32,000 nucleotides of DNA from Streptomyces sp. SX92 (lineage in GTDB: Bacteria > Actinomycetota > Actinomycetes > Streptomycetales > Streptomycetaceae): NCBI RefSeq assembly GCF_030845235.1, contig NZ_CP132593.1:2186082-2218081 (forward strand), read 5' to 3'. Below are positions 5,308 through 32,000 of this stretch, piece by piece. A model generated the notes under the pieces. The model saw nothing but the letters and a program-made list of their open reading frames with translations, ran no database searches and was not told the origin of the DNA. Numbering within the stretch: the first letter of the stretch is position 1; the number at the start of each line of letters is the position of its first letter. Both the position numbers and the translations under genes were made by a program.

Positions 5308-6504
5308 ATGTCCGGGTACATGGATTTCTTCGCACGCCTTGCGCAGGAAACAGCCGAGCGGAAAAGGGAGTTCCTGGAACTCGGCCGCATCGCGGGGCGC
5401 TTCCCGGCAGCCGATACCGCACACCATGGCGAGATCTCGATCTGGTGCAGCAACGACTACTTAGGTATGGGGCAGCACCCGGACGTCCTCGCCGCGATGA
5501 AGCACGCCATCGACGAATGCGGTGCCGGTTCCGGGGGTTCGCGCAACATCGGCGGGACGAACCGCTATCACGTCGCCCTGGAGGCGGAACTCGCCGCGTT
5601 GCACGGAAAGGCCGACGCGGTGCTGTTCACCTCCGGTTATTCCGCCAACGAGGGCGCGCTCTCGGTGCTCGCCGGACGGATCGACGACTGTGCCGTGTTC
5701 TCGGACCAGTTGAACCACGCGTCGATCATCGACGGTTTGCGGCACAGCGGGGCCGAGAAGTTCATCTACCGGCACAACGACTGCGCACATCTGGAGGAAC
5801 TGCTCTCCGGGGTCGATCCGCAGCGGCCGAAACTCGTCGTGACGGAATCCGTGCACTCGATGCGCGGTGACATCGCGCCACTCGCGGAGATCGCCGACCT
5901 CGCCAAGCGGTACGGGGCGGTGACGTTCCTGGACGAGGTGCACGCGGTCGGCATGTACGGGCCGGAGGGTGCCGGGATCGCGGCGCGGGAGGGCATCGAC
6001 TCCGAGTTCACCATGATCATGGGGACCCTGGCCAAGGGCTTCGGCATGACGGGCGGCTACGTCACCGGGCCCGCCGTGCTGATGGACGCGGTGCGGGCCT
6101 TCGCCCGCTCCTTCATCTTCACCACGGCGCTGCCGCCCGCCGTCGCGGCCGGCGCGCTGGCCGCCGTACAGCATCTGCGCGCCTCCCGGAGCGAGCGGGA
6201 CCGGCTTGCGGCCAACGCCACGCTGACGCACGCCCTGTTGCGCGAGCGGGGCATCCCCTTCCTGTCCGACGAGACCCACATCGTGTCCGTCCTCGTCGGG
6301 GAGGACCGCCTGTGCAAGCGGATGTCCGCCCTGCTCCTGGAGCGGCACGGCGCCTACGTCCAGGCCATCAACGCGCCCAGCGTGCCCAAGGGCGAGGAGA
6401 TCCTCCGCGTCGCGCCGTCCGCCGTGCACGACGCCGCCGACGTCCGCCGGTTCGTCGACTGGCTGGACGGGATCTGGGCGGAGTTGGGGGCGGCTCGGGG
6501 GTGA
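5308..6504 (+). CDS. moeA5: 5-aminolevulinate synthase, PLP-dependent alpha-oxoamine synthase family (moeA5-like)
   Basis: 398-aa ORF with [31 protein letters not shown] and the PLP-lysine motif GTLAKGFG. It is full length for the family. An in-frame TTA codon lies at 5461-5463. An alternative start is the ATG at 5320 (MDFFARL). Confidence 0.85.
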
Positions 6505-6542
6505 GGCGGGCGGGTCGGGGGCCGGTTCCCCCGGACCTGGTC

Positions 6543-8390
6543 CTACGCCGGACCGGTGTCGTCCCGGTGGTCGGGGCCCGTGGTGAGGCGGCGGGTCTCG
6601 GGGGACTCGGCCAGGATCTCGTCCCAGGTTCCCGTCGCCTCCACGCGTCCGTCCCCGAGGACGATCACCTGGGCCGCGGCGCGCAGCAGGGCGGGTCGGT
6701 GGGAGACGGCCAGGACGGTGACGGGGCTGTCGAGGAGTCTGCTCCACAGGAGTTGCTCGGTACTGGGGTCCAGGGCGCTGGAGACGTCGTCCAGGACCAG
6801 GAGGTCGGGGCAGCGGGCCAGCATCCGGGCGATCGCCGTCCGCTGGAGCTGGCCGCCGGAGAGCCTCAGGCCCCGGGGGCCCACGACGGTGTCGACGCCG
6901 TCCCGCATGGCCGCCACGTCGGGTGCCAGGACCGCGGTGTGCACGGCGTCCTCCAGCACCGTGCCGTCCTCGTCGGGCAGGCCCAGCAGGATGTTCTCCC
7001 GCAGCGTTCCGCTGAACAGGCGCGGGTCCTGGGGGGTGTAGCCGCAGCGCGGGGGCACCAGGAAGGACGCGGGGTCGGCGATCGGCTCACCGTTCCACAG
7101 CACCGCGCCCCGCTCGTGCGGCAGCAGCCCCAGGACGGCCTGGATCAGCGTCGACTTGCCCGCGCCGACGCCTCCGGTGACCACGGTGACCGAGCCGCGT
7201 ACGACGGTGAGGTCCACGTCCTCGACGCCGTGCTCGGTGCCGGGGTGCCGCGCGGTCAGGCCCCGGACGGTCAACTCCCGCAGACCGGAGTGCTGTCGGG
7301 GCGCGGCGGGCGAGGGCACAGTCACAGGCGCGGGCCCGGGGACCGGCTCCGGCTTCTCAGCACCGACCGAAGACGCCGTACCCGAGGGCCTCCCCAGAAA
7401 CACCCCGATCCGATCCAGCGCCACCGAAACCCGCTGGAGCCGCACCGACAGGATCCCGATCGAGGCCAGCGCCTCGGCGAGGATCTGGAGGTAGAAGGTG
7501 AACAGCGCGAGGTCGCCCACGCTGAACGTGCCCTCGTGCGCCCGTCCCGCCGTCAGCAGCAGGACCACGCCGATCCCGAGGGGCGCCGCGTTGCCGATCA
7601 CCGTCCGCTGGACGCCCGCGAAGAGCTCCTCGCGTACCGCCGCCCCGGCCCGCGCGGTGTTCAACCGGGCGATGTGCGCGGCCACATGGTCCTCGGCGCC
7701 CGCCGCCTGCACCGCCTTCACGGCGCCGAACGCCTCGCGCAGGGCGCCCGCGACCTCGGCCGAGGCGGCGCGGGTGGCCCGCCGGTGGCGCAGGAAGCGG
7801 CCGTGGACCGCGGCGGTGACCAGGGTGATCAGGACCAGCAGCACGAGCAGCGCGGTCGTGACGAGCGCGTCGATGCGCATCATGACGGTGACCGCCGCGA
7901 CCACGAACAGCCAGTGCGCGAGGTTGGTGGGGGCCCAGGCCACGAAGAAGCCGGTCTCGTCGACGTCCTCGCCCACCACGCGCAGCGACTCCCCCGGAGC
8001 CGTCCGGGCGGCGGCGCCCCGGCCGCGCAGGGCGGAGCCCAGCAGGCGGCGGCGCAGCCGTGCGGTCGTGGCGTACTGGACGTGGGGTTCCAGCCGGTTG
8101 ATCATCACGCCGAACTGGAGGCACATCCGGGCCCCCTCGATCGCGGCCACCCAGGCGATGAGCAGCCAGACCCCGCCGCCGGCGCCGATCTCGTCGAACA
8201 GCCGCTGGAACAGCAGCCCCACCGCCAGGGTCCCGGCCCGCAGCAGCACCCACAGCCCGGTCAGGGTCCAGTAGGCCCCGGCAGAGCCGCGCAGCACCAC
8301 CCCGAGCCGCCCGAACGTACCCCGTGGCCCGGCGTCTTTTTGCGCCCGCGCCCCGACGTCGCCCTGCGCGCGCGTCCCTGTGTCCGTCAC
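6543..8390 (-). CDS. moeD5: ABC transporter, fused permease/ATPase (moeD5-like exporter half)
   Basis: 615 aa. An N-terminal transmembrane domain is followed by Walker A (GGVGAGKST), the ABC signature (LSGGQLQR) and Walker B (LLVLDD). GTG start at 8390, 12 nt after the stop of the upstream ABC gene. Confidence 0.85.
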   Translation of the reverse strand: MTDTGTRAQGDVGARAQKDAGPRGTFGRLGVVLRGSAGAYWTLTGLWVLLRAGTLAVGLLFQRLFDEIGAGGGVWLLIAWVAAIEGARMCLQFGVMINRLEPHVQYATTARLRRRLLGSALRGRGAAARTAPGESLRVVGEDVDETGFFVAWAPTNLAHWLFVVAAVTVMMRIDALVTTALLVLLVLITLVTAAVHGRFLRHRRATRAASAEVAGALREAFGAVKAVQAAGAEDHVAAHIARLNTARAGAAVREELFAGVQRTVIGNAAPLGIGVVLLLTAGRAHEGTFSVGDLALFTFYLQILAEALASIGILSVRLQRVSVALDRIGVFLGRPSGTASSVGAEKPEPVPGPAPVTVPSPAAPRQHSGLRELTVRGLTARHPGTEHGVEDVDLTVVRGSVTVVTGGVGAGKSTLIQAVLGLLPHERGAVLWNGEPIADPASFLVPPRCGYTPQDPRLFSGTLRENILLGLPDEDGTVLEDAVHTAVLAPDVAAMRDGVDTVVGPRGLRLSGGQLQRTAIARMLARCPDLLVLDDVSSALDPSTEQLLWSRLLDSPVTVLAVSHRPALLRAAAQVIVLGDGRVEATGTWDEILAESPETRRLTTGPDHRDDTGPA

Positions 8391-8402
8391 CCGCCCTGCC
8401 CG

Positions 8403-10142
8403 TCAGCCGGTGCGCAGCAGTTCGTGGAAGCGGGAGGTCGGGTCGGCGGCGAGGGTGGTCTGTTCGCCGTGCTCGACCACGGTGCCCCCGTCGAGGACGA
8501 GGACGCGGTGCATGCTGCCCAGGGCGTGCGGCCGGTGCTGGACGACGACGGCGGTGCGCCCTTCCAGGAGCCGTTCCATCGCGGGCATGAGGAGCCGTTC
8601 GGTGTGGGGGTCGAGGCGGGCGGTCGGCTCGTCCATCAGGACGATTGCCGGGTCGCGCAGGAACACCCGGGCGAGGGCGAGGAGTTGCTCCTGGCCGGCG
8701 GACATCCCGCGGGCTCCGGTGCCCAGCACGGTGTCCAGTCCGTCGGGCAGCTCCCGGCACCACTCGGTGAGCCCGGCCTCCTCCAGCGCGGCGCGCACCC
8801 GGCCGTCGTCCACCGAGGGGTCGTAGAAGGTGAGGTTGTCGCGGAGGGTGGCGTGCAGGATCTGGACCTCCTGGGTGACCAGGGCGACGCGGCGGCGCAG
8901 CGCGCGCGGGTCGAGCCCGGCCACGTCCGCCCCGCCGACGCTGACGGTGCCGCGGGCCGGGTGCTGGAGTCCGAACAGCAGCCGTACGACGGTGGACTTG
9001 CCGCTTCCGGTGCGGCCGACGATGCCGAGCCGCTCCCCGGGACGCAGCCGGAAGGAGACGTCCCGCAGCACCGGTTCGCCCGGGTCGTAGCCGAAGAAGA
9101 CCCCGTCGAGGCGGGCGCCCAGCGGTCCGTCGGGCAGCCGTCCGGTCCGGGAGGGCGCCGGGTCCACCTCCTCGTCCCCGTCCGTGCGCAGCAGTTCGGT
9201 CAGGCGTCGCACGCTGACCGCGGCCTCCTCCAGGTCGTGGAAGCGGGTGGTGACGGCCAGCAGCGGACGGCGCAGCAGCATGGCGTAGGAGAGGCAGGCG
9301 AAGGCCGTGCCGGTGGAGAGCTGGCCGCGGTCGTGCAGCCAGACGCTGACGCCGAGGGCGAGGACGACGCTGACCGTGGACAGGCTCTGGACGGTGGCGG
9401 GCCAGCGGACCGAGACCCGGGCCGCGCGGTGCGCCCGCCGGTACAGCTCGTCCTGCCGGGCCTCCAGGTCGGCCAGGGTGTGGGCGGCGGCCCCGTTGGT
9501 CCGCAGGTCCTGGGCGCCGGCGAGACGTTCCTCCAGGAAGCCCAGGAGGTCGGCGGAGGAGGCCTGGCGGGCGGCGACGAAGGGCATGGCGCGGCCCACG
9601 AGCCCGCGCAGCAACAGCAGGGTGCCGGCCGCGAACGGGGCGAAGACCAGGGCCAGTCGCCAGTCGAGCAGGAACAGGGCCCCGAGGATGCCGGCCACCA
9701 GCAGCAGCTGGGCCAGCACCTCCAGCACCAGCGCGGACATCACCGCGGCGAGGCGGGTGACGTCGCCGTCGACGCGGTCGAGGAGCTCGCCGGGCGGATG
9801 GCGCTGGTAGAAGCGGGAGGGTCGGCGCAGACAGTGGGCCACCAGGTCGGCGCGCAGCCGGTTGGTGCCGCGCCAGGCGAGCCGGGCGGCCACGGCGTCA
9901 CTGGCGACGGTCACCACGAGCAGCCCGAGCGCGGCCGTCAGGTACCAGGCGGCGACGCCCAGCAGGAGATCGGCCGGGCTGCCGGTCAGCGTGTGGTCGA
10001 TGAACCGGCGCAGCATCTGGGGCGCGACGAGTTGCAGCCCCACCCCGAGAGGGACGAGCAGGGCGAGAAGGAGAACGGACGGCCGTTCCCCGCGCAGATA
10101 GCGGATCAGAACGGAGAGCTGCCGTAACGGGCTGCCTGCCAA
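8403..10142 (-). CDS. moeJ5: ABC transporter, fused permease/ATPase (moeJ5-like exporter half)
   Basis: Track ORF 8403..10226 (-). Walker A (GRTGSGKST), signature (MSAGQEQL) and Walker B (IVLMDEP). I prefer the TTG start at 10142, which is preceded by GGGGGAGGGACGCG (an RBS 6 nt upstream). An in-frame TTA codon lies at 10125-10127. The start is uncertain. Confidence 0.8.
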   Translation of the reverse strand: MAGSPLRQLSVLIRYLRGERPSVLLLALLVPLGVGLQLVAPQMLRRFIDHTLTGSPADLLLGVAAWYLTAALGLLVVTVASDAVAARLAWRGTNRLRADLVAHCLRRPSRFYQRHPPGELLDRVDGDVTRLAAVMSALVLEVLAQLLLVAGILGALFLLDWRLALVFAPFAAGTLLLLRGLVGRAMPFVAARQASSADLLGFLEERLAGAQDLRTNGAAAHTLADLEARQDELYRRAHRAARVSVRWPATVQSLSTVSVVLALGVSVWLHDRGQLSTGTAFACLSYAMLLRRPLLAVTTRFHDLEEAAVSVRRLTELLRTDGDEEVDPAPSRTGRLPDGPLGARLDGVFFGYDPGEPVLRDVSFRLRPGERLGIVGRTGSGKSTVVRLLFGLQHPARGTVSVGGADVAGLDPRALRRRVALVTQEVQILHATLRDNLTFYDPSVDDGRVRAALEEAGLTEWCRELPDGLDTVLGTGARGMSAGQEQLLALARVFLRDPAIVLMDEPTARLDPHTERLLMPAMERLLEGRTAVVVQHRPHALGSMHRVLVLDGGTVVEHGEQTTLAADPTSRFHELLRTG

Positions 10143-10266
10143 CGCGTCCCTCCCCCGCGGCGGAAGGCCACAGCATAAAGTCGGCGGGCCGCCGTTGGGA
10201 ATGACGCATACGGATGCGGAATACATGCCACCGCTTTTTTCTCGAAGCGCGGGCGACAGGACGCCG

Positions 10267-10295
10267 TTGCTGCCGATTCATCGCGCTGTTAGACT
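10267..10295 (+). promoter_or_regulatory. Putative sigma-70-type promoter for the moeE5 operon
   Basis: TTGCTG (10267-10272), a 17-nt spacer, then TAGACT (10290-10295), inside the 348-bp lower-GC divergent gap between moeJ5 and moeE5. This is a pattern match only. Confidence 0.3.
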
Positions 10296-10490
10296 CCACG
10301 GGTCTTCCGGGCAATTCGCCCTGCACGCCGTCGCTGCGCACCAGTCATTCTCGGCCACATTCTCTGGCTTCCGTGTACCTCCGGACCGGCCGGTTTCTCG
10401 TGCCCCGCAGCCGACCGAAGCCCGAGGACTGCACCAGTACGGAGCACCGCCTTGAACGACCGGATATCCACGGACCAAGGGGGATGAGCA

Positions 10491-11513
10491 ATGTCGGGTG
10501 ACGCGCACGACGGGGCCGACAGCACAGGAAAAGCGGTGGTCACCGGTGCCGCGGGTTTCATCGGCTCCCATCTCGTCGAGGCGTTGCGGCGCTCCGGGAC
10601 AAACGTCGTCGGTATTGACCGAAAAGCCTCCTGGGCCAACCGCGAAATCCCGCCGACCGCCGAACGCGGATCCCTGCACGCCCTCCACGCCGACCTCGTC
10701 TCCGCGGACCTTTCGGCCTGTCTGGAAAATGCCTCCACGGTCTTCCACTTGGCCGCACTGCCCGGTGTCCGCCCGTCCTGGACGCAATTCCCGGAGTATC
10801 TGCACTGCAACGTGCTGGCCACCCAGCGACTTATGGACGCCTGCGTCCGTTCCGGCGTGCCCAAGGTCGTGATGGCCTCCTCGTCGAGCGTGTACGGCGG
10901 CGCCGAGGGCACGATGTCCGAGGATGACGTGCCCCGCCCGCTGTCGCCGTACGGCGTCACCAAACTCGCCGCGGAACGGCTCGCCCTGGCCTTCGCCGCC
11001 CGGCGGGACGCCACCCTCTCGGTGAGCGCCCTGCGCTTCTTCACGGTCTACGGCCCCGGCCAGCGCCCGGACATGTTCATCGGCCGGGTCATCCGCGCCA
11101 CCCTGGAGAACACCCCCATCGAGGTGTACGGGGACGGCACCCAGATCCGTGACTTCGTCCATGTCTCGGACATCGTGCGCGCCCTGCGGCTCGCCGCCAC
11201 GCGGTTCGACGAGGGCAGCAGCGTGCTGAACATCGGCACCGGACACGCCGTGTCGGCCAACGAGATCCTCGCGCTGACCGGGGAGTTGACCGGCCTGACG
11301 CCGAACGCCCGCTACGGGCCCGCCCGGATCGGCGACGTACGGGCCACCACGGCCGACACCGGCCGGGCGCGACAGCGGCTCGGCTTCACCGCGCGCACGG
11401 ACCTGCGCTCCGGGCTGGCCACCCAGATCGAGTGGGCCCGCCAGGTGCTCGCCCAGGCCCCGCCACAGGGGACCGCCTCGTCGGCCGGGATGGCCCCCAC
11501 CCACCGGTCGTAG
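10491..11513 (+). CDS. moeE5: NAD-dependent nucleotide-sugar 4-epimerase, SDR family (moeE5-like; UDP-GlcA to UDP-GalA)
   Basis: 340 aa. Rossmann motif VVTGAAGFIGSHLV and catalytic SPYGVTKLAAE (YxxxK). RBS AAGGGGGA lies 6 nt upstream of the ATG. Confidence 0.85.
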   Translation: MSGDAHDGADSTGKAVVTGAAGFIGSHLVEALRRSGTNVVGIDRKASWANREIPPTAERGSLHALHADLVSADLSACLENASTVFHLAALPGVRPSWTQFPEYLHCNVLATQRLMDACVRSGVPKVVMASSSSVYGGAEGTMSEDDVPRPLSPYGVTKLAAERLALAFAARRDATLSVSALRFFTVYGPGQRPDMFIGRVIRATLENTPIEVYGDGTQIRDFVHVSDIVRALRLAATRFDEGSSVLNIGTGHAVSANEILALTGELTGLTPNARYGPARIGDVRATTADTGRARQRLGFTARTDLRSGLATQIEWARQVLAQAPPQGTASSAGMAPTHRS

Positions 11514-11517
11514 CCGT

Positions 11518-13470
11518 ATGTGCGGCTTCGTGGGATTCAGTGACACCGGCGCGGGCTCGGACGACTCCCGTGCCACGGCCGAGCGGATGCTGGCCGCGGT
11601 GGCGCACCGCGGTCCCGACGGCAGCAGCTGGTGCCACCACCGGGGCATGACCTTCGCGCACTGCGCCCTGACCTTCGTCGACCCCGACGGCGGGCGGCAG
11701 CCGTTCGTCTCCGCGAGCGGTGCCACGGCGCTCGTCCTCAACGGCGAGATCTACAACCACGAGGAGCTGCGCCGCGAACTGCGGGCCACGGGCGCCCGGT
11801 TGCGCACGGGCAGCGACACCGAGGTGCTGGCCGAGCTGTACGAGCGGCACGGCATGAAGGTGCTGGACCGGGTGCGCGGCATGTACGCCTTCGTGCTGCA
11901 CGACGCGCGCACCGCGACGACCTCGCTGGTGCGCGACCCGATGGGCAAGAAGCCGCTCTACTACGCACGCGTCCCCGGCGGGATCGCCTTCGCCTCCGAA
12001 CTCACCGCGCTGCTGCGCCATCCCGACGTCCGCGCCACCCCGGACGTGCGCGCGCTGGCCGGCTATCTGACGCTCCAGGCGTTCTGCGCGCCCGACTCGG
12101 CCGTGGCCGATGTGCGCAAGGTCCGCCCGGGCAGTTGTCTGGAGTACTCCAAGGGGCGGCTGCGCGAAGTGGAGTACTGGCGGCCGAGACTGACCGCAGA
12201 GGGGCGGCCGCCGGGCCGGCGGGAGGCCGCCGCGCGCTTCGAGGAGCTGTTCCGGGCCGCGGTCGCCCGCCGGGTCACCAGCACCGACCGTCGGCTCGGT
12301 GTGCTGCTGAGCGGCGGGCTCGACTCCAGCGCGGTGGCCGCCGTCGCCCAGCAGCTCTCCCCGCACCGGCCGGTGCCGACGTTCAGCGCGGGCTTCGAGG
12401 CGCACGACTTCGACGAGAGCGCGCACGCCCGCGCGGTCGCCCGGCATCTGGGCACCGAGCACCACGTGGTCCGCATCGGCGGCCGTGATCTCGCCGAGGT
12501 GGTGGAGTCCGAGTACGCCCGTGCCGACGAGCCGCTCGCCGACCCCTCCCTGCTGCCCACCCGGATCGTCTGCCGGGCGGCGCGCTCGCACGTGCGCGGG
12601 GTGCTCACCGGGGACGGCGCCGACGAACTCCTGCTGGGCTACCGGTACTTCCAGGCCGAGCGGGCGATCGAGATCCTGCTGCGGCTGATGCCGGCGGCCC
12701 GGCTTGAGGCGCTGGTGCGGGCCCTGGTGCGCCGGCTGCCCGCGCGGTCCGGGAACCTGCCCGCCGCCGCTGCCCTGGGGCTGCTGGCCCGTGGGCTGCG
12801 GGCCGCGCCCGAGCACCGCTTCTATCTGTCGACCGCTCCCTTCGGCCCGGCCGAACTGCCGGGTCTGCTGCGGCCGGAGGCGCGCGCCGCCCTCGCCGGG
12901 CACGACCCCTTCGCCGAGGTCGCCCGGCTCCTGGAGGGCCAGCCGCACCTGACCGGCGTCCAGCGCAGCCAGCTCGCCGTGGTGGCGCACTTCCTGCGGG
13001 ACGTGATCCTCACCAAGACCGACCGCGGCGGGATGCGCAGCGCCCTCGAACTGCGCTCGCCCTTCCTCGACCTGGACCTGGTCGAGTACGGCAACGCGCT
13101 GCCCGTCTCGCTGAAGCTGCGCCGCTTCACCGGCAAGTACCTGCTGCGCCGGGTGGCCGCCGACTGGCTGCCCGAGGACATCGTGCGGCGCACCAAGCTC
13201 GGCTTCCGCGCCCCGCTGGCGGCCCTGCTCCGCGACGAACTGCGGCCGCTGCTGCTGGACACGCTCTCGGCGTCCGCGCTGGACCGGGGCGGGCTGTTCG
13301 ACGCCGGTGCCGTACGGGTGCTGGCCGACGACCATCTCAGCGGCCGGCGCGACACCTCACGCAAGCTGTGGGCGCTGCTGACCTACCAGCTGTGGTTCCA
13401 GGCGCTGCCCGTGCACTCCCCGTCCCCCGACTGCCTCGACCTGACCGAGGAGCCCCACCGTGCGCCCTGA
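11518..13470 (+). CDS. moeF5: Glutamine-dependent asparagine-synthase-type amidotransferase (moeF5-like)
   Basis: 650 aa. The N-terminal MCGFVGF supplies the Cys2 Ntn nucleophile. PP-loop LLSGGLDSS. Starts 4 nt after the moeE5 stop. Confidence 0.85.
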   Translation: MCGFVGFSDTGAGSDDSRATAERMLAAVAHRGPDGSSWCHHRGMTFAHCALTFVDPDGGRQPFVSASGATALVLNGEIYNHEELRRELRATGARLRTGSDTEVLAELYERHGMKVLDRVRGMYAFVLHDARTATTSLVRDPMGKKPLYYARVPGGIAFASELTALLRHPDVRATPDVRALAGYLTLQAFCAPDSAVADVRKVRPGSCLEYSKGRLREVEYWRPRLTAEGRPPGRREAAARFEELFRAAVARRVTSTDRRLGVLLSGGLDSSAVAAVAQQLSPHRPVPTFSAGFEAHDFDESAHARAVARHLGTEHHVVRIGGRDLAEVVESEYARADEPLADPSLLPTRIVCRAARSHVRGVLTGDGADELLLGYRYFQAERAIEILLRLMPAARLEALVRALVRRLPARSGNLPAAAALGLLARGLRAAPEHRFYLSTAPFGPAELPGLLRPEARAALAGHDPFAEVARLLEGQPHLTGVQRSQLAVVAHFLRDVILTKTDRGGMRSALELRSPFLDLDLVEYGNALPVSLKLRRFTGKYLLRRVAADWLPEDIVRRTKLGFRAPLAALLRDELRPLLLDTLSASALDRGGLFDAGAVRVLADDHLSGRRDTSRKLWALLTYQLWFQALPVHSPSPDCLDLTEEPHRAP

Positions 13471-20637: not shown

Positions 20638-21456
20638 TCAGTGCACCAGGTGCCGCGGCAGCAGCCGGTCCCGTACGTCGTCGGTGTAGAGGCCGACGAC
20701 GGGGACCAGTCCCGAGGAGGCCGGCTGCTCCCGCACCGCGTCGAGCGCCTGTGTCCGCAGCCGCTCCAGGAGCGCCTCGACGTCCGCGGCGGGGACGGCC
20801 CCGGTGCGCATCAGGTGGCCGAGGTTGCCCTCGCGCTCGCCGTGGCGGTCGTAGTCGGTGAGGTCGTCGGCGATGGTGATGATCGTGCCGAAGGCCTCGG
20901 CGAACCGCCGGGCGGGGTCCACGGACTTCTCCTCGCGGCCGCAGAGCGCGGCGAGCGAGCCGTAGCAGCCGAGGAAGGTGGCGCCGTAGGTGCTGGCGTT
21001 GGCGCACCACTCGTCGAGGTCGCGGGCCCGGTGGCTCTTGGTGCGGATCTGGCCGGTGCAGACCGCCGTGAAGTCCCGCTCCAGCAGGTCGGTCACCGAC
21101 CGGGCGTCCGCGGCGAGTTCGCACATCTCCTTCAGGGCCGTCAGATGCAGATGCAGGCACAGACAGGCGAGTTCGATGCGGTTGAGGCCGGTGTCGTCGT
21201 CCATGAGGTCGTCGAGCAGCTTCATCGCCACGATGTCCAGGGCCAGCGCGCGGGCCACCGCCGCCCGCGTGTGCGGGTCGGTGATCCACTCGGTGAGGAA
21301 GTGCGGCACCCGCAGGTACAGGCGCAACGCGGCGGTGTGGGCGACGAGGTCGGGCGAGCCGCCGTTGCGGGCGACGAACTCCGTGACGTGGTCGCGGTTG
21401 TCGGACTCGGTGACCAGCATGGCCGCGGTGTAGTCCGCGGGCAGCGCGGCGGTCAC
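20638..21456 (-). CDS. moeN5: All-alpha prenyltransferase (moeN5-like; C10 addition to the farnesyl chain)
   Basis: This is the 3' part of track ORF 20638..21882 (-). Asp-rich motifs DDLMDDD and IADDLTDYD. The GTG at 21456 forms a GTGA overlap with the moeO5 stop. An alternative ATG lies at 21420. Confidence 0.75.
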   Translation of the reverse strand: MTAALPADYTAAMLVTESDNRDHVTEFVARNGGSPDLVAHTAALRLYLRVPHFLTEWITDPHTRAAVARALALDIVAMKLLDDLMDDDTGLNRIELACLCLHLHLTALKEMCELAADARSVTDLLERDFTAVCTGQIRTKSHRARDLDEWCANASTYGATFLGCYGSLAALCGREEKSVDPARRFAEAFGTIITIADDLTDYDRHGEREGNLGHLMRTGAVPAADVEALLERLRTQALDAVREQPASSGLVPVVGLYTDDVRDRLLPRHLVH

Positions 21457-22274
21457 GGCCGGTCCGCGCTGATCTCGGTGAGCGTCGTCCGCCAGTCGGC
21501 GTGCTCCAGCGCCCCGGCGAAGCCCACGTAGTCGGCGCCCGCCTCCAGATAGGCGGTGACATGCTCCCGCCGGCGGACGTTGCCGCTGACGAACACGATC
21601 TGGTCGGGGTCCAGCCGGCGGCGGAAGTGCCGGACGACCTCGACGGGGACCTGGGTGTAGCGGGAGTACAGGTACACCATGTGGAAGCCGAAGCTGCGGG
21701 TGACCGCGATGTACCGGTCGATCTGCTCGGTGCCGACGGTGGCGACCGGCACGGTGCCCAGCAGGTCGCCGGTCTTGTGGTCCTCGCCGAAGGTGAGGGC
21801 GACGGCGAGCAGGAGCTCGGGCCACTCCTCGCGGTCGACCCGGACGGGCAGGTTGACCAGGGTCTCCAGATAGCTCTTCCACACGTAGTAGTCGTCGCGC
21901 GAGCCGAGCAGCGCCGGCAGCAGCAGGGCGTCGGCGCCGCGGGCCAGGGGGAAGCCGAGCCCCTTGCGCGGTGGGAAGTGCAGCAGCACCGGCAGCGAGG
22001 TGACCTCCTTGATCGCCGCCACGTACGGCTCCATCCGGGCCTCGAAGGACTCGTAGTCGGTGCTGGCGAGGATCACGGCGGGATAGCCGAGCGTGTCGAG
22101 GAGCTTGGCCTTCTCCACGGCCTCGGCCTGCGGCACCTTGAACGGGTCGATGATGTGGATGGGCCCCCGTTCGTGGTCCCGCAGCCGCGCGAGGACGTCG
22201 CCCTGGCCCAACAGCGATGGTCCGGCCGGGACGTGTGTGCGCTGGACGAGCTGCGGTGAGGTGTTCACCGGCAT
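21453..22274 (-). CDS. moeO5: Prenyl-3-phosphoglycerate synthase, PcrB/GGGP-synthase-like TIM barrel (moeO5-like)
   Basis: This is the 3' part of track ORF 21453..22766 (-). The ATG at 22274 is preceded by AAGGGGGA. The sequence (IHIIDPFKV..., LASTDYESFE, LLLPALLGS, FHMVYLYSR, VSGNVR, ADYVGFAGALE) matches my recollection of MoeO5 closely but is not identical. Confidence 0.85.
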   Translation of the reverse strand: MPVNTSPQLVQRTHVPAGPSLLGQGDVLARLRDHERGPIHIIDPFKVPQAEAVEKAKLLDTLGYPAVILASTDYESFEARMEPYVAAIKEVTSLPVLLHFPPRKGLGFPLARGADALLLPALLGSRDDYYVWKSYLETLVNLPVRVDREEWPELLLAVALTFGEDHKTGDLLGTVPVATVGTEQIDRYIAVTRSFGFHMVYLYSRYTQVPVEVVRHFRRRLDPDQIVFVSGNVRRREHVTAYLEAGADYVGFAGALEHADWRTTLTEISADRP

Positions 22275-22279
22275 TCCCC

Positions 22280-22383
22280 CTTGTTGTCCGGCTTGTTGTC
22301 CGGTCGTGGCGCGGCTTGTTGTCCGGTGGTGGCGCGGTTTGTTGTCCGGTGGTGGCTCAGCTTGTTGTCCGGTCGTGGCGCGG
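22280..22383. repeat. Tandem direct repeat, 23-bp unit x 4 plus a 12-bp half unit
   Basis: Units are cttgttgtccggtcgtggcgcgg at 22292-22314 and 22361-22383 (identical), 22315-22337 (1 mismatch) and 22338-22360 (4 mismatches), plus a half unit cttgttgtccgg at 22280-22291. The core TTGTTGTCCGG occurs 5 times. A palindrome cggcgcgcgccg at 22381-22392 abuts the upstream stop codon. Confidence 0.95.
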
Positions 22384-22392
22384 CGCGCGCCG

Positions 22393-23475
22393 TCATGCCC
22401 GGCCGGTCGCGCGGCTCGGCCCGGCCGCCGGGGCCGCCGCCGCGGCGTTCGCCCTGGCGAGGGCGGCGACGACGGACGCCGTGGTGTAGAGCGCCCTGGT
22501 GTCCAGGACGACGGAGCCCAGCGCGGCCTTTCCGCGCCGGCCGCGCTCCCAGTGCTCGCGTGCGTCGGGGTCGAACTCCATGGGGCCGGGCACCCGGCAC
22601 CACGCCGAGGGCCGCCAACCGCCGTCCTTCTCCTGGGAGTCGAGCAGATACGACACCGCCCGGCGGACGGTGTCACGGTCCTCGGGCGCCCCCGCCAGGA
22701 CGGCGCGCAGGGCGAAGGCGGTGGCGAAGGCGGAGCCCTCCGGCTCCCACTCGGTGCGTACGGCACCGTCGGCGCCGATCCTGGCCGCGGCCCAGCGGGC
22801 GGCCGGACGCACCTCGGCCGGCACGTCGGCCCGCGGACCGGCGGTGAGCGCCTCCACGGCGAGCGCGGTCGGGTACTCCCGGTCGGGCCACCAGTAGGCG
22901 GGCCATGCCCCGTCGGGGCGCTGGATCTCCCTGAGCCGGGCCAACAGCCGTTCGTGGACGGGGAGTTCGAACAGTCCGGCGGCGGCCGCGGTGACGCAGG
23001 CGTGGCTCGCGTACCAGGCGTCCCAGCGGGGGGCCACCCGGTCCAGGAAGGGTGCGGCGAACTCCGGCAGGTAGCTGGAGATGCCGCCGTCGTCCTGGAG
23101 GTGCGCGGCCACGAAGCGGTAGCCCTCCTCGGCGCGGGCGTCCCGCGAGGCGTCCAGCGCCTCGGCCAGGCGCAGCACCCAGGAGGTGATGTCGGCGTCG
23201 CCGGGGACCTGGGGACAGTAGCCCCAGCCGTCGGACGGGCCGCGGGCCTGTTTCAGCAGTTCCCAGGCGGAGACCGCCGCCGCGCGCCCTGGTCCCTCGG
23301 GCAATTCCGCGAGGGAGGCCCCGACAAAGGCGGTGGCCCAGAACTGGCCGGGGCCGCGGACTTCGTAGTCGTTCCACCAGCCGTCCGCGTCACGTGCGGA
23401 TCGGAGGAATTCCGTCGCCCTCGACAGGGCTTGTTCCGTGGAATCGCCGAGGGGTAATCGCTGTGCACCGTTCAC
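22393..23475 (-). CDS. Squalene-hopene-cyclase-like / prenyltransferase alpha-alpha-toroid repeat protein (putative class II terpene cyclase), single domain of about 360 aa
   Basis: Track ORF 22393..23514 (-). I place the start at the GTG at 23475, 4 nt after GAAAGGAGAG. There is a perfect QW motif, RAVSYLLDSQEKDGGW (22615-22662), matching [KR][GA]xx[FYW][LIV]xxxQxxxGxW. A near-perfect second copy is RATEFLRSARDADGWW, and further DG[GA]W-type repeats occur (QRPDGAW, QDDGGI, PSDGWGY). GDADITSW (23185-23199 encodes DADIT) sits where SHC has DxDDTA. High GC3 in this frame. TTA codon at 23455-23457. Confidence 0.7.
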   Translation of the reverse strand: MNGAQRLPLGDSTEQALSRATEFLRSARDADGWWNDYEVRGPGQFWATAFVGASLAELPEGPGRAAAVSAWELLKQARGPSDGWGYCPQVPGDADITSWVLRLAEALDASRDARAEEGYRFVAAHLQDDGGISSYLPEFAAPFLDRVAPRWDAWYASHACVTAAAAGLFELPVHERLLARLREIQRPDGAWPAYWWPDREYPTALAVEALTAGPRADVPAEVRPAARWAAARIGADGAVRTEWEPEGSAFATAFALRAVLAGAPEDRDTVRRAVSYLLDSQEKDGGWRPSAWCRVPGPMEFDPDAREHWERGRRGKAALGSVVLDTRALYTTASVVAALARANAAAAAPAAGPSRATGRA

Positions 23476-23617
23476 GAACTCTCCTTTCTGGGGAGAGGCG
23501 ACGAGCCGGGCCACCGAACCGAGCGGCTGACGCCGTGTCGGCAGGACGATTACCCAACCCTACACGTGTTCGTATCGGCGAGACAGAGTCACTTTTCCTT
23601 CGACGGGTTCCGCAAAG

Positions 23618-23672: not shown

Positions 23673-24353
23673 TCACACGAATTGCATGTGCGTGCGTCGC
23701 CGCAATCGCACCGACAGGACGGCACCGCTCGTCAGGACCAGCAACGCGGTCACCACCACGGCATGGGTGACGCCGGACGCGAGGGAGCCGCTGCCGGCGC
23801 CGTCGACGGCGTAGGTGATGATCTCCCGGGTCGACCAGAAGGGCAGGGCCTTGGCGGCGTCCTTGGCCGGGTCGATCACCATCTGCGCGCCGATGACGGA
23901 GATCAGCAGCAGACTGCCCTCCAGGTCCCGGGGGACGGCGAGGCCCAGCAGCAGCCCGAGCGGCACCGCGACCAGCGTGGTCAGGACCAGCTCCAGGGCG
24001 ACGGCCTGCGGGTTGGCCACGTCCTGGTCCACGACGACGACCACGGCGTACAGCGCGGAGATCAGCAGTCCGGCGGTGAGCAGGGCGAGGGTGCGGCCCA
24101 GGTACAGGTGCCGGGGCCGGAAGCCGGACAGGGTCAGCCGGGACTCGATCTCCCGGCCGCCGACGGCCGAGAAGAGGGCCGCGGTGCTCACCGCGAAGCC
24201 GACTCCGAGGCTGGCGAAGCGGATGGCCTGGCCCGGCTGGTCGTGCCGGCCCAGGTAGAACACCAGCGGCACGAGCAGGAGCAGTCCCAGCACCCCGCGC
24301 CGGCGCAGCAGTTCCCGCAGGGTCATCTCGGCCATGCGCAGGGTGCGGATCAT
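23673..24353 (-). CDS. moeX5: ABC-2 type transporter permease (moeX5-like)
   Basis: 226 aa, highly hydrophobic with about 6 predicted transmembrane segments. ATGA overlap with the upstream ATPase gene. Confidence 0.75.
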   Translation of the reverse strand: MIRTLRMAEMTLRELLRRRGVLGLLLLVPLVFYLGRHDQPGQAIRFASLGVGFAVSTAALFSAVGGREIESRLTLSGFRPRHLYLGRTLALLTAGLLISALYAVVVVVDQDVANPQAVALELVLTTLVAVPLGLLLGLAVPRDLEGSLLLISVIGAQMVIDPAKDAAKALPFWSTREIITYAVDGAGSGSLASGVTHAVVVTALLVLTSGAVLSVRLRRRTHMQFV

Positions 24354-25024
24354 CGGCCGGCCTCCTGGGCGCGCGGGCTGAGGTCCAGCACCTGGTCCAC
24401 CTGGTCGAGCTGGTTGAGCATGTGGGTCACCACGACGATCGCCTTGCCCTGGTCGCGCCAGTTCCAGACGTTCTGCCAGAAGTCCACGTAGGAGCCCCGG
24501 TCGAAGCCCTGGTAGGGCTCGTCGAGCAGCAGGACGTCGGGGTCGCCGAGGGCGGACAGGACGACGTTCAGCTTCTGCCGGGTGCCGCCGGAGAGGTCCT
24601 TGGCGAGGGTGCCCCGGGCGACGGACCAGTCGAGTTTGGAGGCGAGTTCACGCCCGCGGCGGTCGGCGTCGCGGCCGCCCATGCCCCGGCCCGTGCCGAA
24701 CAGCGTGAAGTGCTCGCGGGGGGTGAGGAATCCCATGACACCGGCGTTCTGGGGGCAGTAGCCGAGGCGTCCGGTGATGGTGACCCGGCCCTTGTCCGGG
24801 GCGAGCAGGCCCGCGCAGATCTTGAGCATGCTGGACTTGCCGGCCCCGTTGCTGCCGACGATCGCGGCGACCTCGCCGGCGCGGACGACGAGGTCGACGC
24901 CGTTCAGGACACGGCGGCGGCCGTAGCTCTTGACGATCCCCTGCGCGTGCAGCCGGACGTCACGCCCGGCCGACGGCCCGGACGCCCCTCCCCACTGCTG
25001 TTCCGCGGGTGCGGAATACCTCAT
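24350..25024 (-). CDS. moeP5: ABC transporter ATP-binding protein (moeP5-like)
   Basis: Walker A (GSNGAGKSS), signature (LSGGTRQKL) and Walker B (VLLLDEP). I prefer the ATG at 25024, downstream of the duplicated GGAAGGAAGG, over the GTG at 25033. Confidence 0.85.
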   Translation of the reverse strand: MRYSAPAEQQWGGASGPSAGRDVRLHAQGIVKSYGRRRVLNGVDLVVRAGEVAAIVGSNGAGKSSMLKICAGLLAPDKGRVTITGRLGYCPQNAGVMGFLTPREHFTLFGTGRGMGGRDADRRGRELASKLDWSVARGTLAKDLSGGTRQKLNVVLSALGDPDVLLLDEPYQGFDRGSYVDFWQNVWNWRDQGKAIVVVTHMLNQLDQVDQVLDLSPRAQEAGR

Positions 25025-25330
25025 GCGTGCCACCTTCCTTCCGCCTTCCTTCCGTCGCCGCGACGAATGGCGCGGAATGGCGTGCCGTTAGCCTGCCACA
25101 GCCGTGGCGGCCGACCGCACCGGGCACCGGCCCACCGGGCGGGGCGGAAAAATCCGGCCGACTCTTTTCGGTCGTTTCCCGGATCATGGTGGAGGCGAAC
25201 CGTGTGCGGCAGCAACGCAATTCGGCCAGGCTGCCGCCTTAATGGGGTGCGCCTGCCCGGCGGATTCACCGAACAGATACAAGCGGAACGCCAGCATTTC
25301 GGCCACAGATCAGAAACAGGGTGACCGGTC

Positions 25331-29017: not shown

Positions 29018-29941
29018 CTACGACAGCTGCGACTGCACCTGGGACGAAATCAGTTCCAGGTGGTCCAGGTCGGAGAGGTCGAGGATCTGGAGGTAGAGGC
29101 GCCGGGAGCCGATCTTCGCGTACCGGCCGATCTTGTCGACGACCTCGTCCGGGGTGCCGGCCAGGCCGTTGGCCTTCAGCTCGGGCACCTCGCGGCCGAT
29201 GGCGGCGGCGCGGCGGGCCACCTCCTGGTCGTCCTTGCCGACGCAGACGACGAGGGCGTTGGAGTAGGTGATCTCGTCCGCCGCGCGGCCGGCCTCCTCG
29301 GCGGCGGCCCGGACCCGGCCGAACTGGCGCTCGCTGTCCTCGATCGAGCCGAACGGCATGTTGAACTCGTCGGCGTACCGCGCGGCCAGCCGCGGGGTGC
29401 GGGTCGCCCCGTGGCCGCCGATGAGCACGGGAACCTTCGGCTGCGCGGGCTTGGGCAGCGCGGGCGAATCCTTGAGGTCGTAGTACTCGCCGTGGAAGTC
29501 GAAGGTCTCGCCGACCTCCGTCGCCCACAGCCCGGTGACGATCGCCAGCTGCTCCTCCAGACGGGCGATCTTCTCCTTCGGGAACGGGATGCCGTACGCC
29601 GTGTGCTCCTCCTCGAACCAGCCCGCGCCCAGGCCGAGTTCGACGCGGCCGCCGGACATCTGGTCGACCTGCGCGACCTGGATGGCGAGCACACCGGGGA
29701 GGCGGAAGGTTCCTGCGGTCATCAGCGTGCCCAGCCGGATGCGCCGGGTCTCCCGGGCGAGGCCCGCGAGGGTGACCCAGGCGTCGGTGGGGCCGGGGAG
29801 ACCGTCCCCGTCGCCCATCTTCAGGTAGTGGTCCGAGCGGAAAAATGCGTCGAACCCCAGGTCTTCCGTGGCCTTGGCGACGGCGAGGAGGGTGTCGTAC
29901 GTGGCGCCCTGCTGGGGCTCGGTGAAGATGCGGAGATCCAT
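29018..29941 (-). CDS. LLM-class (luciferase-like) F420-dependent oxidoreductase
   Basis: MDLRIFTEPQQGATYDTLLAVAKATEDLGFDAFFRSDHY and GRVELGLGAGWFEEEH are typical of this family. I chose the ATG at 29941 within track ORF 29018..29968. Confidence 0.75.
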   Translation of the reverse strand: MDLRIFTEPQQGATYDTLLAVAKATEDLGFDAFFRSDHYLKMGDGDGLPGPTDAWVTLAGLARETRRIRLGTLMTAGTFRLPGVLAIQVAQVDQMSGGRVELGLGAGWFEEEHTAYGIPFPKEKIARLEEQLAIVTGLWATEVGETFDFHGEYYDLKDSPALPKPAQPKVPVLIGGHGATRTPRLAARYADEFNMPFGSIEDSERQFGRVRAAAEEAGRAADEITYSNALVVCVGKDDQEVARRAAAIGREVPELKANGLAGTPDEVVDKIGRYAKIGSRRLYLQILDLSDLDHLELISSQVQSQLS

Positions 29942-29971
29942 GCACCCATCATGCATGTAGCCACTCACGCC

Positions 29972-30586
29972 TCAGGACTCCGGCAGGGTCACGGAGAACA
30001 GCGGACCCTCCGCGTTCGGGTCCTCGGACCCGTTGTAGCTCACCGTGCCGCCCTTGCGGCCCACGTCGAGGACGAGATACCCGGTGGCCGACTGTCCCGG
30101 CCGGTAGGTCGCGTCGAGGGCCCGCCCGTCGCCGGAGCCGGCCGGCGTGGAGGCGTCCTGGGAGGCCGTGTCGGTGTCCTGCCACTCCATGACGCCGTAC
30201 GTCATGACCATCGCGGGAGCGTCGCCGATGTTCTTCAGCCTGAGCGACAGCTTGACGAACTGCCCGTTCTCCGGCCCGCTCCCCACGTCCACCTCGTCCG
30301 GTGTCACGTACTCGGCGCCGACGACCTCGACGGACATCCTCGACGTGACCTTGTAGGTCTCGCCGTCCGCGCCCAGTTCGCCGGTCTCGAACTCGCCCTT
30401 CTCCCCGACCTTCAGGACGGGACCGGCGGAGGACACCTTCCCCGACGACGCGTCCTTCTCGGCGGCGGGCGGTGCCGAGGCGTCCGGCTCCGGTCTCGCC
30501 GTCAGCGCGTCCGACGTACATCCCGACAGCAGAACGGCGGACAACAGCACGGCCGGCACGCGGGCACGGCGAACGTAGGCGCGCAT
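29972..30586 (-). CDS. Secreted lipoprotein, unknown function
   Basis: The ATG at 30586 is preceded by GGGGGGAAG. The signal peptide has a lipobox: MRAYVRRARVPAVLLSAVLLSGC. The rest is low-complexity Ala/Pro/Ser followed by a beta-rich domain. Confidence 0.65.
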   Translation of the reverse strand: MRAYVRRARVPAVLLSAVLLSGCTSDALTARPEPDASAPPAAEKDASSGKVSSAGPVLKVGEKGEFETGELGADGETYKVTSRMSVEVVGAEYVTPDEVDVGSGPENGQFVKLSLRLKNIGDAPAMVMTYGVMEWQDTDTASQDASTPAGSGDGRALDATYRPGQSATGYLVLDVGRKGGTVSYNGSEDPNAEGPLFSVTLPES

Positions 30587-30870
30587 GGCGCTTCCCCCCA
30601 GTCTCGGTGGCCCTCCCTGGCCACACGGAGTAGAAAGCGTAAGGCACGGGCGGTAGATGCTCCGGCGGCGGCGCCCTTGTCCCCGGTCGGGTGAAAATCC
30701 GTCAACGCCGCACGCGGGGGGCGACCTCGCCAGTGACCCGCCCGGGTGGTGATCGTTGGCTCGGGCGGAGCCGGACCGTCCGGCGCCCCGCCACCGGACG
30801 GTCGCCGCCGGGGCGTCATCCCTCACCCGCGTCGGCCTCCCCTCGGGGGCCTTGGGCCTAGGAGGCCGTC

Positions 30871-31041
30871 ATGTCCGAAGAAACCGTGCCGCTCGCTGCG
30901 GGGGCCGGACAGCCGAAGGGGCTGTTGCAGCAGATGGAGGAGCTGATGGCGGCGCTGAACGCGGACCTGTCGGCCCTGGACGCGGATCTTCAATCGGCCG
31001 GGGGGAGCGAGCGGAGGGTTGGTGCGGAGGAGCGGGACTGA
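30871..31041 (+). CDS. Small hypothetical protein (56 aa), below the ORF-track size cut-off
   Basis: The ATG at 30871 lies 5 nt after a perfect AGGAGG. It translates to MSEETVPLAAGAGQPKGLLQQMEELMAALNADLSALDADLQSAGGSERRVGAEERD. Third-position GC is high and the helical heptad-like core looks coding. Confidence 0.4.
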   Translation: MSEETVPLAAGAGQPKGLLQQMEELMAALNADLSALDADLQSAGGSERRVGAEERD

Positions 31042-31145
31042 TCCTCTGGGGTCGACCTGTGCACGGGCCTGTTGGCGACGGGGGTTGGCTCGTTCGCCAG
31101 CAGCTCGGGCGGAGCAGGCAGGCGAGGGTGACCGCACCCACCTAA

Positions 31146-31215
31146 GGGGCGCGGGGAACTGCGCGACCAGCCCCCACTCAGCCGCAGACGAACAACCGCG
31201 CCCACAACCACCGCA
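31146..31215. repeat. Streptomyces intergenic repetitive element (GGGGCGCGGGGAACTGCGCGACCAGCCCC... type)
   Basis: The sequence ggggcgcggggaactgcgcgaccagcccccactcagccgcagacgaacaaccgcgcccacaacc lies in a convergent intergenic gap. I recognise this motif from memory as a dispersed intergenic repeat of Streptomyces genomes. Only one copy is in this window, so copy number cannot be confirmed here. Confidence 0.45.
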
Positions 31216-31218
31216 CCG

Positions 31219-31677
31219 CTACGCGGGTAACGCCTCATCCCGGTCCGTCAGCTTCCGCAGCATCTCCACGACCCGATCCCGCGCCTCGTCCGCCGCGTCG
31301 ATCGCCTCCATGCACTGCCAGTACGTCCGCTCGTCGTCCGCCGCGGAGGCGAGGCCGACGAGGGCGATGCCGACCTCGCCGAGGAGGCCGCCGAGGCAGA
31401 GCAGAGCCTGCCGGGCGTCGCCCAGTTCGGTGAGCTGGGCCGCCCGCAGGGTCTCGGTGTCGATGTCGGGGGGATCGAGCACCCCGCAGCCCCGGCCCGC
31501 CAGTTCGGTCAGGCCCAGGGCCTCGCCTCTGAGTTCGGGCGGGCCGGAGACCGCGAGGCGGCTGCCTATCGCCTGGGCCAGGGCCTGCGCCTGCCATATC
31601 TCCGCCATGATCTGCGGCGCCCCGCCACTCCCCGCCAGGGCACGCCTGCTCGTCACGATGAGCCGCACCGCGTCCAT
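31219..31677 (-). CDS. Hypothetical protein
   Basis: Track ORF 31219..31737 (-). High GC3. The ATG at 31677 (MDAVRLIVTSRR) has a G-rich stretch upstream, while the GTG at 31737 has no RBS. TTA codon at 31228-31230. I recognise no motif. Confidence 0.5.
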   Translation of the reverse strand: MDAVRLIVTSRRALAGSGGAPQIMAEIWQAQALAQAIGSRLAVSGPPELRGEALGLTELAGRGCGVLDPPDIDTETLRAAQLTELGDARQALLCLGGLLGEVGIALVGLASAADDERTYWQCMEAIDAADEARDRVVEMLRKLTDRDEALPA

Positions 31678-31851
31678 GCGCTGCCCCCGTCTGCTCCCGA
31701 CGCGCCTCGGCACGTCCGCCCGAACTCCCTTGTCCACTACCCAGAGTGAGGGCGCCTGAGACGAAAAACCAGAGGAAGGCGGAAATCTTCGGACAACGAA
31801 TCGGTTTCGGACAGGCGAACAACTCCGGAGAGTGATAACGGAGTTGAGGAT

Positions 31852-32000
31852 TCTACGGCGCCGGGAACCTCCGCTCGTTCCGGTCGATCTTCGCGTCCAG
31901 GGCGGCCAGCGGGTCGATGCCGAGCACCTCGCACAGTTGCAGCAGATACGCCAGCACGTCGGCGACCTCGTCCGTGACGCGGTGCGCCGTGTCCGGGTCG
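31852..32000 (-). CDS. MazG-like nucleotide pyrophosphohydrolase (C-terminal fragment; the gene continues beyond the right edge)
   Basis: My reverse translation gives ...HRVTDEVADVLAYLLQLCEVLGIDPLAALDAKIDRNERRFPAP*, which resembles the C-terminal helix pair of MazG/dCTP-pyrophosphatase-type proteins. TAG stop at 31852-31854. Confidence 0.5.

Follow-up and report, generated by a model that had tools for sequence, protein, structure and literature searches.

The 32,000-nucleotide (nt) stretch of the Streptomyces sp. SX92 genome studied here (contig NZ_CP132593.1, positions 2,186,082 to 2,218,081 of the forward strand; hereafter, the window) contains a complete moenomycin-type (moe) cluster, as established by Pfam scans and by tblastn on the window. 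Between moeX5 and moeO5 of this cluster lies an additional gene, orfX, which is the subject of this study. The cluster starts with moeB5- and moeA5-like genes (for an AMP-binding enzyme and an aminotransferase, respectively), followed by those for the two ABC exporters moeD5 and moeJ5; it continues with moeE5, moeF5, GT1, a moeH5-like open reading frame (ORF), the radical-SAM gene moeK5, GT4 and the carbamoyltransferase gene moeM5, and ends with moeP5-moeX5 and orfX-moeO5-moeN5 (minus strand), then GT5, GT2 and GT3. As described in an initial annotation of this DNA, orfX is located directly upstream of moeO5 and moeN5 and on the same strand. The start of moeN5 appears to overlap the stop of moeO5, and orfX is probably co-transcribed with both genes. 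The features of the locus are listed in Table 1.

Table 1. Features of the orfX locus, in window coordinates.
Feature	Coordinates	Strand	Remarks
orfX	22393..23475	-	Assigned as MstE-like beta-monodomain class II terpene cyclase ("moe prenylcyclase"); 360 amino acids (aa); ORF, Pfam, PDB matches, AlphaFold2
Ribosome-binding site (RBS) aaaGGAGAG	23479..23487	-	3-nt spacer (ttc) to the GTG; GGAGAG and spacing kept in Streptomyces orthologues
TTA (Leu) codon 7 of orfX	23455..23457	-	Candidate bldA-dependent translational control point
Near-QW motif RATEFLRSARDADGWW	23374..23421	-	Residues 19-34
GDADITSW, DxD general-acid motif	23179..23202	-	Residues 92-99; D93, 23197-23199; D95, 23191-23193
Full QW motif RAVSYLLDSQEKDGGW	22615..22662	-	Residues 272-287
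Basic loop WERGRRGKAALGS	22513..22551	-	Residues 309-321; aligns with the R337-bearing loop of MstE (HMMER)
Non-coding stretch upstream of orfX	23469..23576	-	Matches part of the moeX5-moeO5 spacer in orfX-less clusters
14-bp perfect GC-rich hairpin past the moeX5 stop codon	23618..23650	-	Followed only by CUUUG, no U-tract
23-bp tandem repeat CGGCTTGTTGTCCGGTCGTGGCG	22289..22384		4.2 copies, 89% matches; orfX-moeO5 spacer
moeO5, farnesyl-3-phosphoglycerate synthase, PcrB family	21453..22274	-	Pfam PcrB; 66-92% identity to MoeO5 of L001 and L002
moeN5, C10 prenyltransferase building the C25 chain	20638..21456	-	tblastn, 65-95% to other Streptomyces MoeN5; function, PMC7839719
moeX5	23673-24353	-	ABC transporter pair with moeP5, upstream of orfX; Pfam, tblastn
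moeP5	24350-25033	-	ABC transporter pair with moeX5, upstream of orfX; Pfam, tblastn

The orfX frame extends from 22393 to 23514 on the minus strand (stop to stop), and its first GTG would give a 373-aa product. The 360-aa form starts at the GTG at 23475, behind aaaGGAGAG, and its codon 7 is TTA. The locus was compared with other Streptomyces moe-type loci: 28 were collected by a MoeO5 profile scan (one genome per species), and three were added to reach 31: the window itself, that of the closest homologue (L002) and the pCLA1 locus of S. clavuligerus (L001). The moeX5-moeO5 interval is included in 30 of these; S. prasinus was left unscored, as its contig breaks off within moeO5. One of the 30 (L011) has a pseudogene; among the other 29, an intact copy is present in this interval by tblastn in 15 (the window and 14 more) and absent from 14, among them L026 (S. 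viridosporus NRRL 2414) and L001 (S. clavuligerus). S. viridosporus, formerly S. ghanaensis, is the species of the reference producer (PMC13096315), and the absence of any homologue in NRRL 2414 agrees with the initial annotation, in which the 360-aa ORF was described as an addition to the S. ghanaensis cluster. The RBS and the TTA codon, pointed out in the same annotation, are conserved: the GTG start, RBS and TTA codon (GTGAACGGTGCACAGCGATTA behind GGAGAG) are found in 13 of the 15 Streptomyces copies that are intact, counting that of the window. Because this arrangement recurs, we conclude that the 360-aa orfX is a real gene, and the comparison supports its start at GTG 23475 well. The first 21 nt, which hold the TTA codon, are near-invariant among orthologues; the TTA is missing from the copies of L027 and L028. 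Two orfX-less loci (L019 and L024) have a TTA at codon 4 of moeO5 instead. These sequences suggest that bldA may control whichever gene leads the orfX/moeO5 unit. The GC content at third codon positions of orfX is 0.89, as in coding sequence, and the ratio of non-synonymous to synonymous substitution rates (dN/dS) is 0.16-0.37, demonstrating purifying selection.

At the protein level, OrfX matched the Pfam families SQHop_cyclase_C (44.9 bits, cut-off 26.1) and SQHop_cyclase_N (27.8 bits, cut-off 26.2), two of the families that the initial annotation had proposed to search; the third, the Prenyltrans repeat family, was absent from the Pfam matches at E ≤ 1. The squalene/oxidosqualene cyclase models of NCBIfam scored 35-49 bits against cut-offs of 323-851 (TIGR01507, 40.1 against 431.1; TIGR01787, 49.2 against 322.7), and OrfX does not qualify as a squalene-hopene cyclase (SHC) by these models. 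The QW motifs reported previously were recovered, one full at residues 272-287 and one nearly so at residues 19-34, together with three DGxW elements. A sequence search of the Protein Data Bank (PDB) placed 6IJ1 first (E 4e-82), then MstE (6SBB-6SBG, E 1e-62), whereas the 631-aa SHC was reached only at E 9e-8; with phmmer, OrfX residues 14-342 aligned against MstE residues 25-363 (E 1e-62).

These relationships were mirrored at the structural level. The AlphaFold2 model of OrfX, computed from a 46-sequence alignment, is all-helical, with a predicted local distance difference test (pLDDT) of 94.3 and a predicted template modelling score (pTM) of 0.92. A Foldseek comparison with the PDB ranked 6IJ1 first, with template modelling (TM) scores of 0.88/0.95 and a root mean square deviation of 1.6 Å, followed by all the MstE entries (TM 0.87-0.91) and then by 8PAK and 8PAJ; the beta domains of drimenyl diphosphate synthase, SHC, oxidosqualene cyclase and diterpene cyclases came lower. 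OrfX thus has a single (alpha/alpha)6 beta domain and no gamma domain, as its 360 aa match 6IJ1 and MstE from end to end. Taken together, sequence and predicted structure identify OrfX as an MstE-like beta-monodomain class II terpene cyclase, a member of a known family; the protein is soluble and single-domain (beta-only). A truncated or degenerate SHC was considered and ruled out by the full-length match to the monodomain family and by NCBIfam scores far under the SHC cut-offs. The structure prediction, which the initial annotation had proposed as a check, therefore returned class II cyclases, and the single alpha/alpha barrel of the SHC superfamily described there was recovered; however, it is not an unusually short SHC but the barrel of the described MstE-type family.

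MstE, the merosterolic acid synthase of Scytonema sp., resembles OrfX in fold and size (35-38% identity) and shares its conserved aromatic residues. It is the founding monodomain class II terpene cyclase, in which a DxD motif replaces DxDD and a mobile loop caps the active site (PMC12414744); this DxD protonates the terminal alkene, and the substrate head group is not a diphosphate (PMC12414744, PMC9401909). The DxDD(TA) of SHC is not matched in OrfX, which has DADITS with the third Asp replaced by Ile. D95 is aligned with D109 of MstE and D376 of SHC, and D93 with the first Asp (D107) of the MstE GDADTTGW, whose second Asp is marked as the acid by the deposited D109A and D109N variants. Neither D93 nor D95 varies among the 46 aligned homologues, whose identity falls as low as 33%, or within any of the three subgroups that were separated; a set of Trp, Tyr, Cys and His residues, with W34, W46, W154, C160, W195 and W196 among them, is likewise invariant. 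Because MstE uses DxD and both Asp are invariant, DADI is the normal acid motif of the family rather than a degenerate DxDD. The initial annotation was thus right in aligning the retained Asp with the catalytic acid, and the DxD left by the replaced third Asp, which it noted, is what members of this family normally use (PMC12414744). The other members of the superfamily that were compared are more distant. The A. acidocaldarius SHC (PDB 1SQC/2SQC) shares with OrfX the superfamily, the QW motifs and the alignment of the acid at D376; however, it is a 631-aa beta-gamma didomain protein with DxDD, and its TM score to OrfX is just 0.37-0.38. The myxobacterial monodomain "squalene-hopene cyclases" of Cystobacter fuscus (8PAK) and Archangium gephyra (8PAJ), of 361-365 aa, belong to a different subgroup (E 1e-24 and 3e-23, TM 0.80-0.84, ~28-30% identity).

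The fold is also compatible with a protein that has no catalytic role and sequesters a prenyl tail, either that of intermediates or that of the finished antibiotic, as a lipid-binding chaperone or for self-protection: alpha/alpha toroids serve as binding modules as well, the distant Foldseek matches include the thioester domains of alpha2-macroglobulin and C4, and 6IJ1 has no reported activity. We consider such a role improbable, as both acid Asp and the aromatic residues common to the enzyme MstE are invariant over the 46 sequences, and as orfX is grouped with lipid-building genes and separated from the transporter genes by a hairpin.

The closest structural relative of OrfX comes from a cluster of the same type. 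The sequence of 6IJ1 matched a protein of Actinoplanes teichomyceticus at 100%; it is the 346-aa "Prenylcyclase" (UniProt A0A1B1ESM0, WP_122980619) of the teichomycin (tchm) cluster, which belongs to the moenomycin family. With 46-48% identity over the full length, it is the best PDB match of OrfX; its acid motif is DAD (PEDADSTGW), as in OrfX, and its gene also lies directly upstream of a moeO5 homologue in a moe-type cluster. When the search was reversed, the Streptomyces moe-cluster proteins were the next best group behind Micromonosporaceae, and the OrfX and 6IJ1 groups are each other's nearest relatives outside their own genus group. The two genes differ in their surroundings: the tchm gene lies between moeGT1 and moeO5 homologues, with its stop overlapping the moeO5 start, and has no TTA codon, whereas orfX lies between moeX5 and moeO5 and is separated from moeO5 by a 118-nt repeat-bearing spacer. 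A cyclase of a moenomycin-family pathway has therefore already been annotated and crystallised, and the gene class is on record; the view in the initial annotation that the cyclisation has no assigned enzyme was too strong. The abstract of the tchm cluster publication reportedly mentions two novel structural genes, of which the cyclase may be one. According to papers that cite it (PMC13453071, PMC8788787), this publication is Horbal et al. 2016.

What might such a cyclase do in a moe-type pathway? MoeN5 joins geranyl diphosphate (GPP) to the farnesyl chain of the farnesyl-phosphoglycerate (FPG) trisaccharide to give the C25 moenocinyl chain (PMC7839719). The geranyl-like unit at the end of this chain has the pattern of a substrate for proton-initiated cyclisation. 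The diumycinol of AC326-alpha is a cyclic moenocinol chain, and the paper says no more on the ring (PMC4126109); S. viridosporus produces the acyclic moenocinol lipid (PMC13096315). We consider it fairly probable that OrfX closes one ring at the terminal C10 of the C25 moenocinyl chain to give a diumycinol-type lipid, and this cyclisation of the terminal isoprene units, suggested in the initial annotation, is still the best-supported function. In the proposed mechanism, MoeN5 would first extend the farnesyl chain of the glycosylated phosphoglycerate lipid by C10, and the resulting C25 moenocinyl tail would enter the OrfX barrel; Asp95, held by Asp93, would protonate the terminal isopropylidene double bond, and the tertiary cation would be attacked by the next trisubstituted double bond to form one six-membered ring. 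Deprotonation at a methyl group would then leave a cyclohexane with an exocyclic methylene, a diumycinol-type (cyclic moenocinol) lipid of the kind found in AC326-alpha and the diumycins. Such a cyclisation is an isomerisation and leaves the mass unchanged. A second ring would not be expected to form, since the 1,5-diene spacing ceases to be regular further down the chain. OrfX would thus differ from MstE, which makes a polycyclic product from geranylgeranyl-dihydroxybenzoate, in forming a single ring on a C25 phosphoglycolipid chain. Substrate, product and timing relative to MoeN5 are inferred, and three observations in particular support this reading: S. viridosporus, a producer of the acyclic lipid, has no orfX; every cyclase-bearing cluster keeps moeN5; and the homologue of Streptomyces sp. 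NPDC053048 (L033) is coupled to a MoeN5 homologue where no MoeO5 is present, which ties the cyclase family to a MoeN5-type chain.

Several points weigh against this assignment. (i) The residues that were mutated in MstE are not conserved, Y157 being replaced by Phe143 and R337 by Ala317 (the MstE R337A variant is PDB 6SBG), so that substrate recognition cannot be transferred from MstE. (ii) The position of D95 at the base of the cavity is a placement made by homology to MstE. (iii) The PDB title of 6IJ1 is merely "Crystal structure of a protein from Actinoplanes". (iv) No biochemical or genetic evidence for any cyclase of the moe/tchm group was found in the accessible literature, a search to which the tchm cluster paper was external, and the literature search returned no published activity for 6IJ1 or for the diumycinol ring-closing step. 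(v) The detail of the diumycinol ring draws in part on general background. (vi) The known diumycinol producers include none of the orfX-positive strains.

The loop that aligns with the R337-bearing loop of MstE is 3 residues shorter in OrfX and carries R311, R313, R314 and K316; it may fit a different, anionic head group. Since the head-group residues differ from those of MstE, the specificity may differ as well, and OrfX might be an active class II cyclase of the pathway that acts at another step or makes another product, working on C15 farnesyl-phosphoglycerate or on a non-moenocinyl chain, or releasing a hydrated or bicyclic compound. That the nearest neighbour of the cyclase gene is moeO5 and not moeN5 across all moe-type loci, with the overlap of cyclase stop and moeO5 start in Micromonosporaceae, would fit such a reading. 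However, MoeN5 requires an uncyclised distal farnesyl chain (C6-C11 attack on GPP, PMC7839719), moeN5 is present in every orfX-positive cluster, and the L033 cyclase is coupled to a MoeN5 homologue in a cluster from which MoeO5 is absent. We therefore regard another step or product as rather unlikely, and retain ring closure on the moenocinyl chain after MoeN5 as the preferred function.

We wondered how the cyclase gene is distributed among moe-type clusters. It is located directly upstream of moeO5, on the same strand, in the window, in 14 further Streptomyces loci and in both Micromonosporaceae loci (L031 and L032), those of A. teichomyceticus and Micromonospora ureilytica. In these two, the gene stands between the GT1 and moeO5 homologues, with the cyclase stop overlapping the moeO5 start. 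The co-occurrence that the initial annotation had proposed to examine is thus established, with homologues beside moeO5 in other genomes and none in S. viridosporus; none of the computational results that it had listed as speaking against its proposal was obtained. The identity of the cyclases to that of the window is 68-92% and tracks the divergence of MoeO5 and MoeN5.

A neighbour-joining tree of MoeO5, MoeN5 and MoeM5, rooted on Micromonosporaceae, places the cyclase in both outgroups, in the clade of the window (13 loci) and in L027 and L028, which group with the cyclase-less pair S. lavendofoliae/S. lavendulocolor in 191 of 200 bootstraps. One further locus, L011 (Streptomyces sp. NPDC003077, 8767-10000), has a decayed orfX pseudogene: the upstream region and the start codon are kept, the upstream region and first 17 codons are 92% identical in DNA, frameshifted remnants extend to residue 119, and the sequence beyond this residue is replaced by short tandem repeats. 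As L011 is sister to an orfX-positive locus in 200 of 200 bootstraps, its sequence is a clear case of recent loss of the cyclase within an orfX-positive clade. No orfX remnants were detected by tblastn or by a six-frame profile search in the other orfX-less spacers, including those of the S. viridosporus and S. clavuligerus clades. The orfX-less clusters keep both flanks: a stretch of about 108 nt, which in the window reaches the orfX start codon and in these clusters lies in the middle of the spacer, and the repeats just upstream of moeO5. Because of this distribution on the tree, of the decay in L011 and of the persistence of the flanks where the gene is missing, an ancestral cyclase that was lost repeatedly explains the sequence data best. 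The deep nodes of the core-gene tree are weakly supported (124/200 and 106/200), and the cyclase may instead have been gained at the same site by exchange between clusters. The broader proposal that repeated loss of an ancestral cyclase has made acyclic moenocinol the derived state, and that about half of the Streptomyces moe-type clusters specify a cyclic, diumycin-type lipid, is put forward tentatively, with a little less than even confidence. We also considered a deletion between GTGAAC repeats that would have joined the orfX start codon to moeO5 in the orfX-less clusters; this was rejected because the S. viridosporus moeO5 start matches the start region of moeO5 in the window itself. In the S. 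viridosporus spacer, the homology to the orfX upstream region lies ~360 nt further upstream of the moeO5 start.

The same data bear on whether orfX belongs to the pathway at all. A passenger gene from another terpenoid pathway, inserted into the moeX5-moeO5 spacer, would account for its absence from about half of the Streptomyces moe-type clusters and for the family members found in other contexts, in Sorangium (L034) and Chloroflexota (L035). However, the gene keeps its position with respect to moeO5 in three genera and has diverged in parallel with MoeO5 and MoeN5; it lies downstream of a stretch shared with the spacer that precedes moeO5 in orfX-less clusters, its TTA codon is conserved and it is under purifying selection. 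An insertion of this kind is very improbable.

Members of the family were also observed outside moe-type clusters. In L033 (10001-12009), translational coupling links a cyclase of 46% identity to a MoeN5 homologue (40% identity). The cluster has no MoeO5; besides moeD5/J5- and moeE5-like genes, it encodes a class I terpene synthase, a SnoaL protein and two P450s, and its product may be a different cyclised "head-to-middle" terpenoid. In L034 (Sorangium sp., 4964-13077), a member with 38% identity seems to share an operon with genes for two PhyH and two JmjC-type oxygenases and for a LanM-like protein (DUF4135 and LANC_like), which suggests that this cyclase acts on the prenyl group of a peptide-derived product.

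With respect to the non-coding elements, the initial annotation had described a terminator hairpin insulating orfX from the upstream ABC genes. The 14-bp hairpin is present; however, the intrinsic-terminator scan did not flag it and found no terminator, in keeping with the CUUUG that follows it in place of a U-tract. The 108 nt upstream of orfX are 68.5-71% identical to L018, L019, L022, L024 and L026, and the upstream region is 87% identical to L011 over 159 nt (blastn); the conserved stretch is probably the promoter/5' untranslated region of the orfX-moeO5-moeN5 unit, and a sigma-70 promoter scan found no consensus in it. The 118-nt spacer between orfX and moeO5 consists mostly of the 23-bp tandem repeat, which could possibly bind a regulator. 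S. viridosporus (L026) and L015 have related repeats immediately ahead of moeO5, and the spacer of L011 is filled by other short tandem repeats.

Elsewhere in the window, 3510-6504 holds full-length moeB5- and moeA5-like genes, which encode an AMP-binding protein of 532 aa and a class I/II aminotransferase of 399 aa, respectively. The copies of moeA5 and moeB5 in S. ghanaensis cluster 1 are presumably defective and backed up by a second locus; if so, the cluster of the window may be self-sufficient for the C5N chromophore. Just beyond the cluster, at 3-3835 on the minus strand, lies a Pnkp/Hen1 RNA-repair pair (PNKP ligase, AAA_33 and metallophosphatase; Hen1_L and methyltransferase). At the other end, 29018-31998 encodes a luciferase-like monooxygenase, a DUF4352 protein and the next gene, with no counterpart in any of 33 related moe-gene-bearing loci. 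Because counterparts are absent from the other moe-type loci, these genes mark the cluster boundary, and the monooxygenase (29018-29971) and its neighbours were rejected as accessory, lipid-modifying genes co-occurring with orfX.

The C25 lipid is held responsible for the poor pharmacokinetics of the moenomycins, and its diversification is an active aim (PMC13096315). The enzyme family itself is known; what this study contributes is a testable diumycinol-type assignment, the roughly half-and-half split of the clusters and the evidence for loss. OrfX is a good, as yet unproven, candidate for the diumycin-type ring closure. The OrfX group is a well-defined, pathway-linked addition to the small set of monodomain class II cyclases, and the presence or absence of the gene splits the Streptomyces moe-type clusters into two near-equal classes, which predicts the uncharacterised strains that should make cyclic-lipid congeners. 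If the assignment is true, OrfX would provide the enzyme for the cyclic diumycinol lipid and would be the first class II terpene cyclase shown to act on the prenyl chain of a glycosylated phosphoglycerate lipid; as a natural tail-remodelling enzyme from within the pathway, it would be a direct engineering tool.

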